From an uncultured Gammaproteobacteria bacterium (lineage in GTDB: Bacteria > Patescibacteriota > Patescibacteriia > UBA9934), in contig CAYHFQ010000004.1 of NCBI GenBank assembly GCA_964355955.1, positions 1,162-65,161 of the forward strand: 64,000 nucleotides of DNA. The letters run 5' to 3'. Below, in pieces: positions 4,317 through 60,603 of the stretch. Each line of letters starts with the position of its first letter. Positions within the stretch are counted from its first letter, which is position 1. The notes under the pieces were generated by a model that searched no databases, was not told the DNA's origin, and worked only from the letters and a program-made list of their open reading frames with translations. A program made the position numbers and the translations under genes.

Positions 4317-4463
4317 CGCTCGCAACCGCCGTATCTCCTGTTCCTAGCTGCGCCTCGTCAACCGTGCCAGCCGGCTCACCTCGTATGACTCGGGGGTTGG
4401 CACAGGGCCGAGGCTGGCGTCGTCACAGGAGACACGACAGTCGTTCGCTTCTACAAGGCTCTG
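4317..4463 (+). repeat. Family-1 GC-rich structured intergenic repeat, copy A
   Basis: About 150 nt starting 2 nt after the stop codon. Shares CGCTCGCAACCG...TTCCTAGCTGCGCCTCGTCAACCG...GTCTCACCTCGTATGACTCGGG...CAGGGCCGAGGCTGGCGTCGTCACAGGAGACA...CTACAAGGCTCTG with the copies at 4838, 57884 and 60447. Confidence 0.85.
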
Positions 4464-4481
4464 ACCCTAAGAATTTACGAT

Positions 4482-4508
4482 TTGGCAGTCATTGACAATG
4501 AGTGCCAA
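4482..4508 (+). promoter_or_regulatory. CIRCE-like inverted repeat (HrcA operator) upstream of groES
   Basis: TTGGCAGTC-N9-GAGTGCCAA versus consensus TTAGCACTC-N9-GAGTGCTAA. It sits 40 nt upstream of the groES start, with TTGACA hexamers nearby. Confidence 0.7.
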
Positions 4509-4547
4509 TTTTGACAATATGAGGTTGAAAACTTAACTGATATTTCT

Positions 4548-4835
4548 ATGCAATTAAGACCGCTCGGAGGACATATCATTGTTGAGGCTAAGGTAAAAGA
4601 AAGTAAGACCGCTTCGGGGATTTTTTTGCCAGAGAATGAGGAAAAACAGCCGGAACAGGGTAAAGTGATTGCTGTCGGTCCGGGCAAGTTTTTGGAGAAT
4701 GGGATGAGGCAGATTATAGAAGTGAAGGTTGGCGATACCATCGTTTTTAAAAAATATGGGCCGGATGAGGTGGAGGTTGAAGGGAAGAAGTTTTTAGTGG
4801 TCGCCGCGGAAGATATTATGGCAGTGATTGAATAG
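4548..4835 (+). CDS. groES: Co-chaperonin GroES
   Basis: 95 aa reading MQLRPLGGHIIVEAKVKESKTASGIFLPE...KVIAVGPG, a full-length GroES match. Confidence 0.95.
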   Translation: MQLRPLGGHIIVEAKVKESKTASGIFLPENEEKQPEQGKVIAVGPGKFLENGMRQIIEVKVGDTIVFKKYGPDEVEVEGKKFLVVAAEDIMAVIE

Positions 4836-4837
4836 TT

Positions 4838-4985
4838 CGCTCGCAACCGCCGTATCTCCTGTTCCTAGCTGCACCTCGTCAACCGTAACGGCCGTCTCAC
4901 CTCGTATGACTCGGGCGCCGTTACAGGGCCGAGGCTGGCGTCGTCACAGGAGACACGGCAGTCGCTCGCTCCTACAAGGCTCTGG
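4838..4985 (+). repeat. Family-1 structured intergenic repeat, copy B (inside the groES-groEL spacer)
   Basis: Near-identical to copy A. The internal stem differs (CCGTAACGGC/GCCGTTACAGG here versus GTGCCAG/TTGGCAC in A), which is a compensatory change. Confidence 0.85.
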
Positions 4986-5028
4986 CTCATGAATGATTTA
5001 ATCTACCAACTACTATCTACCAACTCTA

Positions 5029-57882: not shown

Positions 57883-57883
57883 C

Positions 57884-58027
57884 TTCACTCTCAACCGTCA
57901 TGTTTCCTATTCCTAGCTGCACCTCGTCAACCGCACCACCCGTCTCACCTCGTCTGACTCGGGCGGTGGCGCAGGGCCGAGGTTGGCGTCGTCATAGGAG
58001 ACAATGACAGTTGTTCGTTTAGATCGG
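57884..58027 (+). repeat. Family-1 structured intergenic repeat, copy C
   Basis: Carries TTCCTAGCTGCACCTCGTCAACCG...GTCTCACCTCGTCTGACTCGGG...CAGGGCCGAGGTTGGCGTCGTCATAGGAGACA. The outer stem covaries (TCCTAT/ATAGGA versus CTCCTGT/ACAGGAG). Confidence 0.8.
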
Positions 58028-58048
58028 TAAAGAAGTAAAATTGTTTGT

Positions 58049-59305
58049 ATGAAAATTAACGATTTAAAAAATAAAAAAGTAGTCATTTTTGGCTACGGTC
58101 GCGAAGGACAGGCGACGCTGGTTGCACTGCGAAATCGAGGGATTGGTCAGATTGTGGTGACGGATGAGAAGACACTTGATGTGCCAGAGTTTGTAGCTGT
58201 TGATGAGGTGACGGTTGATGCGGAGACAGTGGTGATTAAGGCGCCGGGGATTCCGCTGACGAATTCGATGATTGTGAAATGGCGAGAGGCAGGTGCGGTG
58301 ATTACGTCGTCGACCAATATTTTTATAGCGGAGCGAAAGGGGAGAGGGAAGTTGATTGGCGTGACGGGCACGAAGGGTAAGAGTACAACGTCGGCTTTGT
58401 TGGCTCATGTTTTGGTGACGGCTGGGTTGCCGGTTAGACTCGTCGGTAATATTGGTGTGCCGTCGATTAGTGAAGTAGAGGCGACTGATGACACAATTTT
58501 CGTGCTTGAGATGTCGAGCTATCAGCTGGCAGATTTAGAGGTCGCGCCTAATATTGGCATTATTTTGAACTTGTACGAGGAGCATATGGATTGGCACGGA
58601 AGTGTCGACGAATATCAAAAGGCGAAGTTACGTTTGGGGGAGGTGATGACCATGAATGATACGTTGGTTTATAACGCGAAGTTTCCGCGCTTGGCGGAGC
58701 TCGGCGATAAGACGGAGGCTTGGCCGTGTCCGATTGATTTTATTGAAAGGGAAGTTTTACATTCGTTGAAACTGTTGGGGGAGCATAACCGGGAGAATGC
58801 CTGTGCAGTGCTTGAAGTGGCGAAGATTTTGCGAATCGACGAGAATGTGGTGAAAGAAGCGTTCGCTAGTTTTGAGCCGTTGCCGCACAGACTACAAGAA
58901 GTCGGCAAGATTGGTGAGGTGCTATTTGTGAATGACTCGATTTCAACGACGCCTGAGAGTGCTATGGCAGCTATTGAGGTTTACGCGGATAATCCATTGA
59001 CGATAATTCTTGGGGGGCAAGACAGAGGTTATAATTTTACGGAGTTGGCGAAGCGATTAAGTAAAGTCGATAACGTGTTGGCGCTCGTGATGCCGGGAGG
59101 TGAACGAGTGTTTACGGCACTCGAGGAGGCTGGGGTCGCGGCCGAGAGAGTGGCGACGCTTGATGAAGCGGTAGCTAAGTCGTTGGCGCATTTGTCTAAT
59201 GGTGGAGTTTGCTTGTTGTCCCCTGCGTCGCCGAGTTATGGGCAGTTTAAGAATTTTGAGGAGCGGGGGAGGATGTTTGCGGAGGTGGTTAAGAAGATTG
59301 CCTAA
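58049..59305 (+). CDS. murD: UDP-N-acetylmuramoyl-L-alanine--D-glutamate ligase
   Basis: N-terminal Rossmann-like KKVVIFGYGREGQA and Mur ligase P-loop GVTGTKGKSTT. Confidence 0.85.
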   Translation: MKINDLKNKKVVIFGYGREGQATLVALRNRGIGQIVVTDEKTLDVPEFVAVDEVTVDAETVVIKAPGIPLTNSMIVKWREAGAVITSSTNIFIAERKGRGKLIGVTGTKGKSTTSALLAHVLVTAGLPVRLVGNIGVPSISEVEATDDTIFVLEMSSYQLADLEVAPNIGIILNLYEEHMDWHGSVDEYQKAKLRLGEVMTMNDTLVYNAKFPRLAELGDKTEAWPCPIDFIEREVLHSLKLLGEHNRENACAVLEVAKILRIDENVVKEAFASFEPLPHRLQEVGKIGEVLFVNDSISTTPESAMAAIEVYADNPLTIILGGQDRGYNFTELAKRLSKVDNVLALVMPGGERVFTALEEAGVAAERVATLDEAVAKSLAHLSNGGVCLLSPASPSYGQFKNFEERGRMFAEVVKKIA

Positions 59306-59329
59306 GTTGAGCTTTTATCGTAGAATTGA

Positions 59330-60436
59330 ATGACTATGATTTGGACTATTTTGTTGTTTTTACTCATTTTGAGCGTGCTGGTGCTGGGCCATGAGTGGGG
59401 TCATTACTTTGCCGCCAAGAGAATGGGCATGAAGGTGGATGAGTTTGGTTTGGGTTTTCCGCCACGGTTGTGGGCTTGGAAGCGCAAAGATGGCATGGAA
59501 GTTTCGCTGAATATGATTCCGCTTGGCGGATTCGTGAAGATTAAGGGGGAGACCCCAGCAGTAGACGACGGGGTCGTCACTGCGGGGTCCGTTGAAGCAG
59601 ATGACAGCTTTGCGAGTAAGAGTATTCCCCGGAGGTTTGTGGTGTTGGTGGCTGGTGTCGCTATGAACTTGGTGATGGCCTGGGTGATTTTTACGGTTGG
59701 TTTTTGGGTAGGTATTCCAGCGATCACGGACGGTGGCGTGACTGGTGGCACAGTGACGAATGAAGGCGTGACGATTTTTGACGTGATGAAGGACTCGCCA
59801 GGTGCGCAGGCTGGTATGGAAATTGGCGACATGGTGAAGAGTATTGATAATGTGGTTTATACGGAGAGTGACGCGGCAAGATTGGCTTTAGCGCCAGGCA
59901 TGACGCACCAGGTGGTACTTGATCGTAGCGGCAAAGAAGTAAGTGTCGACGTGACCGCGAGTTTGATTGAGAGTTTGGGGCATGAGGCGATTGGGATTGA
60001 ATTGCTGAAGACCGGGACGGTGCGCTTCCCGTGGTACCAGGCACCATGGCGGGGCATGAAGCAGGCGGTGGAAGGTACTGTGGCGATTTTTGCAGCCTTG
60101 GGTGGGTTAATAGCTGGTATTTTTAGCCATAACGGCGTTGGGGCGGCAGTGTCAGGGCCGGTCGGGATTGCGGTGGTAACAGGCCAAGTGGCCAAGATGG
60201 GCTTTGCTCATATTCTACAATTTGCCGCTATGCTTAGCTTAAACTTGGCGGTGCTGAACGTGTTGCCAATTCCGGCACTCGACGGCGGCCGGGTAGGGTT
60301 CTTGTTTATTGAGGCGATTCGACGTAAAAAGGCTAGCGTGCAGTTCGAGAGCACCGTGCATGCCATTGGGTTTGCACTGTTGATGTTGCTGGTTGTTTTT
60401 GTGACGTTTAAGGATATACTGGGACTGGTTCGTTAG
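59330..60436 (+). CDS. rseP: Site-2 protease RseP family zinc metalloprotease (M50) with PDZ domain
   Basis: HEXXH in LGHEWGHYFAAK, a PDZ region, and a C-terminal LDGG motif (ALDGGRVGF). Confidence 0.85.
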   Translation: MTMIWTILLFLLILSVLVLGHEWGHYFAAKRMGMKVDEFGLGFPPRLWAWKRKDGMEVSLNMIPLGGFVKIKGETPAVDDGVVTAGSVEADDSFASKSIPRRFVVLVAGVAMNLVMAWVIFTVGFWVGIPAITDGGVTGGTVTNEGVTIFDVMKDSPGAQAGMEIGDMVKSIDNVVYTESDAARLALAPGMTHQVVLDRSGKEVSVDVTASLIESLGHEAIGIELLKTGTVRFPWYQAPWRGMKQAVEGTVAIFAALGGLIAGIFSHNGVGAAVSGPVGIAVVTGQVAKMGFAHILQFAAMLSLNLAVLNVLPIPALDGGRVGFLFIEAIRRKKASVQFESTVHAIGFALLMLLVVFVTFKDILGLVR

Positions 60437-60446
60437 CTTAAAATTC

Positions 60447-60603
60447 ATCGCTCGCAACCGGCAGGGTAGTCCTTTTCCTAGCTGCGCCTCGTCAACCGTA
60501 ACGGCCGTCTCACCTCGTCTGACTCGGGCGCCGTTACAGGGCCGAGGCTAGCGTCGTCAGAGGGCCACCCCGCCAGTCGCTCGCTCCTACAAGACTCAGG
60601 CTC
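60447..60603 (+). repeat. Family-1 structured intergenic repeat, copy D
   Basis: CATCGCTCGCAACCGG...TTCCTAGCTGCGCCTCGTCAACCGTAACGGCCGTCTCACCTCGTCTGACTCGGGCGCCGTTACAGGGCCGAGGCTAGCGTCGTCAGAGGG...CTACAAGACTCAGG. Confidence 0.8.

Follow-up and report, generated by a model that had tools for sequence, protein, structure and literature searches.

The 64,000-nt window analysed here (contig CAYHFQ010000004.1, assembly GCA_964355955.1) carries four co-oriented copies of a palindromic repeat, family-1, which align over ~150 nt. Copy A (4317–4463, core block 4347–4421) lies between a Wzy_C-like gene (3002–4315) and the CIRCE operator/promoter of groES; copy B (4838–4985, core 4868–4942) sits inside the groES–groEL spacer; copy C (57884–58027, core 57916–57990) separates an unannotated 465-aa gene from a MurD-like ligase gene; and copy D (60447–60603, core 60481–60555) separates an RseP-like M50 protease gene from pheS (genes assigned by Pfam). 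We list all four on the minus strand, which pairs better, an initial annotation having read the complement. The four intervals given by that annotation are borne out: two independent conserved motifs each match the window exactly four times, on the + strand (chance expectation 0), and a repeat finder groups B, C and D with copy A at 91, 72 and 62% ungapped identity to A. The copies were also described as starting 2–12 nt after a stop codon, and the measured gaps are 2, 3, 2 and 11 nt (open reading frames (ORFs) ending at 4315, 4835, 57882 and 60436). No sigma-70-like promoter is found upstream of any of the four copies on either strand, and none of the four has a terminator-like site, an intrinsic terminator being a GC-rich hairpin followed by a U-tract. 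A CIRCE-type inverted repeat, TTGGCAGTC-N9-GAGTGCCAA, at 4483–4509 overlaps a TTGACA box upstream of groES, placing copy A upstream of the groESL promoter/operator, whereas copy B is within the operon.

Read on the + strand, the repeat is built from a variable outer arm of ~25 nt, a stem P2, a TCAACCG junction, a 7-bp stem P1 and a 24-nt apical region, followed by the P1 return strand, a CAGGGCC junction, the P2 and outer-arm returns and, often, a tail of 20–25 nt. Copy B illustrates this arrangement, with outer arm TCGCTCGCAACCGCCGTATCTCCTGT, P2 CCTCG/CGAGG, P1 TAACGGC/GCCGTTA, apical loop CGTCTCACCTCGTATGACTCGGGCG between the P1 strands, and tail CTCCTACAAGGCTCTGGCTC after the hairpin. P1 occurs in discrete variants (TAACGGC/GCCGTTA, CACCACC/GGTGGCG as in copy C, and TACCAGC/GCTGGCA, for example), and P2 covaries among CCTCG/CGAGG, AAGTCG/CGACTT and ATATCG/CGATAT. 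The stem variants quoted in the initial annotation are in the sequence as described, and its suggestion of compensatory change holds when extended to 50 copies (45 distinct) from four genomes. The structure pairs in 94.4% of cells, 11 of 24 pairs have changed on both sides, and none of 500 shuffles reaches the observed score; slid controls pair in 23–57% of cells only. Maintenance of P1 and P2 by compensatory changes is statistically well supported, and the view that the family-1 structure is under selection and is not merely a decaying repeat is borne out.

Conservation is concentrated in the middle of the element. Mean column identity is 85% in the 75-nt centre against 51% over the full-length alignment, with the arms most variable. 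The CAACCG and CAGGGCC junctions are invariant in 50 equal-length copies tabulated by column and lay outside the search pattern. The enclosed loop had been called almost invariant; part of this is an artefact, the search pattern being the loop itself, and copies found by other anchors vary there.

To follow the family beyond the window, the core loop was used as the pattern to screen 185,579 species-representative genomes. It returned 47 loci, all but one chance match coming from three metagenome-assembled genomes (MAGs) of Candidatus Uhrbacteria: LJ_bin-3226 (26 copies or more), Umea1p2_bin-0579 (16) and UBA11707 (7). The window genome, with its four copies, is a fourth relative, at ~72–85% nucleotide identity to the three MAGs, which were compared as ~8-kb pieces (loci with L-numbers) totalling ~400 kb. 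Non-loop anchors and a covariance model (R1) added a few copies with diverged loops. Such a model, built from the copies as had been proposed, recovers the four window copies on the minus strand at 95.1, 98.6, 97.7 and 100.2 bits (A to D). A degenerate fragment at about 35925–36066, once counted as a member, scores 7.9 bits (E ~10) and drops out of the family. Viral contigs gave no match to a relaxed core pattern, and JGI metagenomes one chance match and no real copy. At gathering scores, Rfam 15 identifies three tRNAs only in the window, and a permissive scan of 4250–5050 gives chance-level hits (10–17 bits, E above 2). An exact-protein lookup for sister strains found no identical GroES on record. 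Restricted to related Uhrbacteria genomes and without an Rfam match, family-1 is a narrow, undescribed repeat family of a small clade within the candidate phyla radiation (CPR, or Patescibacteria). Three MAG contigs (L020, L040 and L024) terminate within a family-1 copy; copy numbers are therefore minimum values, and recent copies that are nearly identical may be absent from the assemblies.

Three family-1 copies contain a perfect 24-nt palindrome, CCACGTCGGTCGCGACCGACGTGG, nested at one shared position and bordered on either side by a duplicated CAGG. The palindrome occurs at L017:1128–1153, L030:2134–2159, L036:6222–6247 and L037:5203–5226, the one occurrence outside family-1 being in frame (8 codons) in a region that by eye resembles a GatB-like coding sequence.

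The two strands of family-1 do not fold equally well: the strand complementary to that of the initial annotation pairs better. As RNA, the minus forms of the window copies reach −61 to −79 kcal/mol (z −3.8 to −6.3), compared with −54 to −62 kcal/mol (z −1.0 to −4.0) for the plus forms. Copy A gives −71.5 (z −5.1) against −54.9 kcal/mol (z −1.0) and copy B −78.8 (z −6.3) against −57.1 kcal/mol (z −2.2). Across the family the minus form is the more stable in 54 of 57 copies (mean −76.4 versus −64.2 kcal/mol), irrespective of gene direction, and DNA energy parameters leave this ranking unchanged. The DNA folding z-scores of the + form, which lies on the lagging-strand template (see below), run from +0.45 to −1.4. 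Scored over one set of 24 pairs, the minus form pairs in 94.4% of cells, 106 of them G·U, and the plus form in 86.6%, 22 of them G·U; in P1 alone these values become 99.8% and 84.4%. A mutational origin of the asymmetry was considered and set aside as unlikely: a leading-strand C-to-T bias would give G·T wobbles on the + form, the opposite of what is observed.

Orientation was measured against GC skew in the flanking DNA, with the elements masked, as a marker of replication direction. By this measure 54 of 57 copies point the same way (p = 4e-13), as do 16 of the 18 that have their neighbouring genes on the opposite strand (p = 0.001). Relative to genes, 30 copies are co-oriented and 18 run against them (p = 0.11), copies with both neighbours opposed numbering 15–18; a further five stand between divergent genes and one is inside priA; the description of the repeat as always 3′ of + strand genes is accurate for the window and fails across the four genomes. 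The direction of the element follows replication, not transcription. All three skew exceptions are one orthologous inverted copy, part of an ancient doublet downstream of dprA. The doublet is REPIN-like, with two inverted family-1 copies ~80 nt apart between dprA and a Mur ligase gene in three genomes (L010:6353–6600, L013:2876–3125 and L023:1732–1980); its second copy is loop-diverged and is the only one to run the wrong way relative to GC skew.

Window GC skew stays at +0.20 to +0.28 throughout a Pfam-confirmed block of minus-strand genes (45229–55076), which shows that it is not set by the coding strand. We assume the G-rich strand to be the leading one, an assumption supported by gene-strand bias (39 of 50 window genes on the G-rich strand) and by the position of yidC at the left end of the window, transcribed rightward. 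The elements themselves are GC islands (60% versus 50%) whose skew is −0.11 where the surrounding DNA has +0.24. The G-rich strand, taken as the leading strand and hence as the lagging-strand template, bears the C-rich + form in 54 of 57 copies, whatever the gene direction. Three sister repeat families have the same lock to GC skew, in 10/10, 6/7 and 3/3 copies.

Comparison of orthologous spacers reveals that sites are gained, lost and exchanged. The site of copy C is empty in UBA11707 (L045), where its two flanking genes overlap, and the window counterpart of one Umea copy is an empty spacer (31072–31120). Both the groES–groEL spacer and the post-groEL spacer are occupied by family-1 or by a different family, depending on the genome; in LJ_bin-3226, the groES–groEL spacer carries a different element from copy B. 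Elements of different families in these groE spacers have common tail modules, forming a mosaic like that of bacterial interspersed mosaic elements (BIMEs). Orthologous copies also differ in P1 variant, which suggests gene conversion or replacement; the copy D ortholog at L045:233–400 has an identical downstream flank and a different P1 (TACCAGC/GCTGGTA).

One copy has entered a gene. In LJ_bin-3226 a family-1 element lies in frame inside priA, giving a PriA of 648 aa (L039) with an element-encoded insert of ~50 aa. A related insert occupies the same place in a 641-aa homolog (P0004, 68% identity) and is absent from six more distant aligned homologs (P0005–P0008, P0011 and P0012). Only 8 of 56 copies keep open the reading frame that PriA uses, which in most canonical copies is interrupted by a TAG; no frame is open in more than 21 of 56, and most copies have stop codons in every frame. 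A coding function for the family was rejected on account of these stops and of P1 compensatory changes being non-synonymous.

[quoted passage not shown] RPEs are likewise palindromic and non-coding, ~100–150 bp long and without a known transposase, with several families coexisting in one small symbiont-type genome. They are mostly intergenic, and are also found in frame and translated in housekeeping genes (PMC10969869), as family-1 is in PriA of two genomes with the gene kept intact (L039 and P0004). RPEs, however, encode a conserved peptide, whereas family-1 has one in-frame site only, in a frame that is seldom open; they also belong to another phylum, and the likeness is drawn from features and not from sequence similarity. 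No replication-strand lock has, to our knowledge, been described in RPEs.

REP/BIME (RAYT) and IS200/IS605 'peel and paste' systems have hairpins recognized as single-stranded DNA, as those of family-1 may be. Like family-1, they lack transposase-type terminal inverted repeats; they make no target duplication, and REP/BIMEs also form mosaic clusters of different modules in intergenic spacers. REPs are 20–40-nt hairpins whose foot carries a 5′ GT[AG]G; family-1 is ~150 nt, and in the 50 tabulated copies the + form has CAACCG at the foot of P1 and the minus form GGCCCTG. IS200/IS605 and REP/RAYT act on the lagging-strand template with an orientation coupled to the fork (PMC6006769), and family-1 orientation is likewise tied to replication (54/57 overall; 16/18 where genes oppose). 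No Y1 transposase or RAYT was found in the window or in the locus pieces examined.

MITEs such as Correia/NEMIS and ERIC are small, non-autonomous, multi-copy and mostly intergenic, are co-transcribed, fold into long hairpins, and cluster or nest (PMC10969869). Family-1 falls within their range (under ~300 bp, non-coding, multi-copy and dispersed): it is ~150 nt long, the window has 4 copies and the three MAGs have at least 26, 16 and 7. It lacks their conserved terminal inverted repeats, its arms being inverted but the most variable part, no parent insertion sequence (IS) was found, and it differs in having its orientation locked to replication. There is no sign of target-site duplication, the longest shared flank word averaging 4.66 nt against 4.56 nt in mismatched-pair controls, although fuzzy boundaries could hide a short one.

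The attC sites of sedentary chromosomal integrons offer a further likeness: they are imperfect palindromes placed immediately 3′ of ORFs, in which structure is conserved over sequence and one strand is reactive. That strand falls on the template of the leading strand in 25 of 30 such integrons, which limits folding and loss (PMC5371416), and the polarity of family-1 matches the integron case. The flanks of family-1, in contrast, are core housekeeping genes (groES/groEL, the MurD-like ligase gene, pheS) and not cassettes, and its centre is conserved and its arms variable, where attC is the opposite; no RYYYAAC/GTTRRRY boxes are present in the copies, and no integrase was found. We also considered, from the sequence, k-turn, hammerhead and twister cores, anti-Shine–Dalgarno pairing by a CACCUC loop, and a DNA-uptake-sequence role, and set them aside, their defining motifs being absent or the copies too few.

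An mRNA element or a small RNA gene would be oriented by transcription; family-1 is oriented by replication. The best-supported reading, to which we give about an even chance, is a selfish palindromic one: this non-coding, dispersed palindromic repeat of ~150 nt would be a non-autonomous selfish or mobile element of the REP/BIME, RPE or MITE kind that acts at the fork through a folded single strand. At least four families of the sort, family-1 among them, occur in the small Uhrbacteria clade. Insertion, or survival after insertion, would depend on the folded single strand at the replication fork, where a trans-acting protein may read the conserved apex and junction of the hairpin. The orientation lock could arise from insertion coupled to replication, or from loss of those copies whose stronger hairpin is on the lagging-strand template. 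Asymmetric palindromes are reportedly deleted more often when the more stable hairpin is on that template (Trinh and Sinden, 1991), and selective loss of that orientation could on its own produce the lock. Any effects on mRNA, from a stable stem–loop just after the stop codon, would be by-products.

Several observations weigh against a selfish element of this kind. No transposase, HUH/Y1 enzyme or partner candidate was found near the copies or in the window. The only reverse transcriptase seen (in L045) is of the diversity-generating retroelement (DGR) type, with an unrelated role. More broadly, the ORFs of the ~400 kb of loci include no IS, transposase paralog or paralogous ORF, a Pfam search of the flanking genes and of 47 of the 50 window ORFs finds housekeeping and type IV secretion-like genes only, with no mobile-element gene, and none stands beside the old variant copies. 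Nearest-neighbour identity has a median of 83% and a maximum of 95%, so no recent transposition is visible; recent near-identical copies have perhaps been lost, because MAG assembly breaks at repeats. Orthologous copies, moreover, are not independent events. The centre of family-1 is its most conserved part and the termini the least, the reverse of a classical MITE. In IS200/IS605 the folding strand is on the lagging-strand template, whereas the better folder of family-1 is on the leading-strand template, a comparison that depends on the G-rich strand being the leading one. The strand asymmetry of P1 is mostly due to two positions, and one of these, invariant, can be read equally well as a bulged A in the + form; elsewhere, in the outer arms, wobbles differ only modestly between strands (165 A·C-type versus 123 G·T-type mismatches).

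The initial annotation had favoured a selected RNA structure. Selection on structure stands, given the P1/P2 covariation, but an RNA role on the + strand, as a 3′-untranslated-region element, terminator or small RNA, is not supported: the + strand is the one that pairs less well, the four window copies have no promoter or terminator signals, and a gene-end function sits poorly with replication-bound orientation, the gain and loss of sites and a copy translated within PriA. A broader form of the idea, a cis-acting RNA element in mRNAs that provides 3′-end protection, an RNase III processing site or cistron insulation, strikes us as rather unlikely. It would explain why window copies follow stop codons by 2–11 nt, as do about half of the co-oriented copies elsewhere (within roughly 5 nt), and the presence of copy B within the groESL operon; either strand yields a very stable RNA hairpin, and REP, ERIC and Correia repeats affect mRNA stability or are cut by RNase III/RNase E (PMC10969869). 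It does not explain a replication-locked direction in 16 of 18 copies beside opposite-strand genes, the presence in most mRNAs of the worse-pairing strand, the five copies between divergent genes and the one in frame in priA, or orthologous spacers that are empty or hold another family, and the four window copies have no U-tract terminator. The annotation had also raised a protein-binding site, which is possible, with folded single-stranded DNA a more likely form than mRNA.

Such binding could also serve the host. A host-recruited DNA signal at the fork, whether a hairpin for single-strand priming or primosome assembly, or a polar protein-binding site oriented with the fork, would fit the almost strict GC-skew lock in four families and the high conservation of CAACCG, CAGGGCC and the apical loop even in old orthologous copies with diverged arms; several copies adjoin the genome-maintenance genes dprA, uvrA/uvrB and priA. 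We nevertheless judge it unlikely, since sites are gained, lost or swapped among close relatives, the detected copies are few and irregularly spaced (at least 4 to at least 26 per genome), the strand exposed on the lagging-strand template folds poorly, and insertion within a coding gene would be unexpected. A family of independently transcribed small RNA genes, on either strand, is very improbable despite its covarying structure with conserved loops and its lack of coding signal: the four window copies have no promoter-like site upstream on either strand and no terminator after them, there is no Rfam match even at E up to 10, many copies are diverged and some are truncated or inside a gene, and 95% of copies would be transcribed head-on against the fork if the minus form were the RNA gene.

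Returning to a selfish, fork-dependent element, a bolder extension is that the four repeat families constitute an undescribed class of replication-fork-dependent hairpin elements, whose enzyme would read the apical loop and the CAACCG/CAGGGCC junction on one folded strand. We put this forward tentatively and think it improbable. If it were true, the strict polarity would point to insertion by a novel mechanism, such as one that uses the nascent lagging strand as target, or to a function for the host at the fork in organisms with minimal replication and repair machinery.

Other repeats share the window with family-1. A family of ~165 nt follows groEL (6664–6830) and has copies in L042, L011, L032, L013, L014 and L009, six of seven with one orientation relative to GC skew; its 3′ tail, CTAAAGGCCTCCGTC...CTAAAAAGTTTAA, is common to some family-1 copies. 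Family 2, a long-hairpin repeat, is present as direct copies 693 nt apart (34150–34310 and 34865–34990), with further copies in eight other-genome loci; its minus form folds better (−67 versus −49 kcal/mol), and all 10 copies are locked to GC skew. The degenerate fragment excluded above belongs to a separate family (35900–36080), which lies between tRNA-Ser and tRNA-Arg, adjoining a bidirectional terminator; BLAST finds 79%-identical copies in L038 and L012, where its loop-like motif is not conserved. Tandem heptad arrays occupy intergenic spacers at 5001–5022, 6859–6887 and 31071–31102 (ATCTACC, with the reverse-complement type TAGAAGG/GGTAGAG), and arrays like CTACCAACTACTAACTACC stand after many LJ_bin-3226 family-1 copies, immediately upstream of start codons, the groEL one included.

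The window also contains type IV secretion-like genes at 26248–34174 and 46522–48021 (a PrgI-like gene, a TraG/VirB4-like ATPase and a T4SS pilin), standing among large unannotated ORFs; a single ORF at 12086–21562 encodes 3158 aa. In UBA11707, the DGR-like cassette (L045:1546–4210) lies between the MurD-like and RseP-like genes and comprises a 338-aa reverse transcriptase (RVT_1, with LGxxxSQ and YCDD), a bAvd-like 117-aa ORF and a 236-aa ORF. It is missing from the matching window spacer (59305–59330).

CPR bacteria have tiny, streamlined genomes, and our literature searches on CPR/Uhrbacteria repeats and Patescibacteria MITEs turned up no account of dispersed structured repeats there. Here at least four GC-rich palindromic families invade operon spacers, and even priA, all with a fixed polarity to the fork. 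The family also carries a caution, in that covarying hairpins just after stop codons are not necessarily RNA regulators. The surprising and testable part is the replication-strand lock common to four hairpin families in one CPR lineage, a polarity that gives a handle on single-strand DNA processes (transposition, hairpin-driven deletion and priming) in unculturable organisms.

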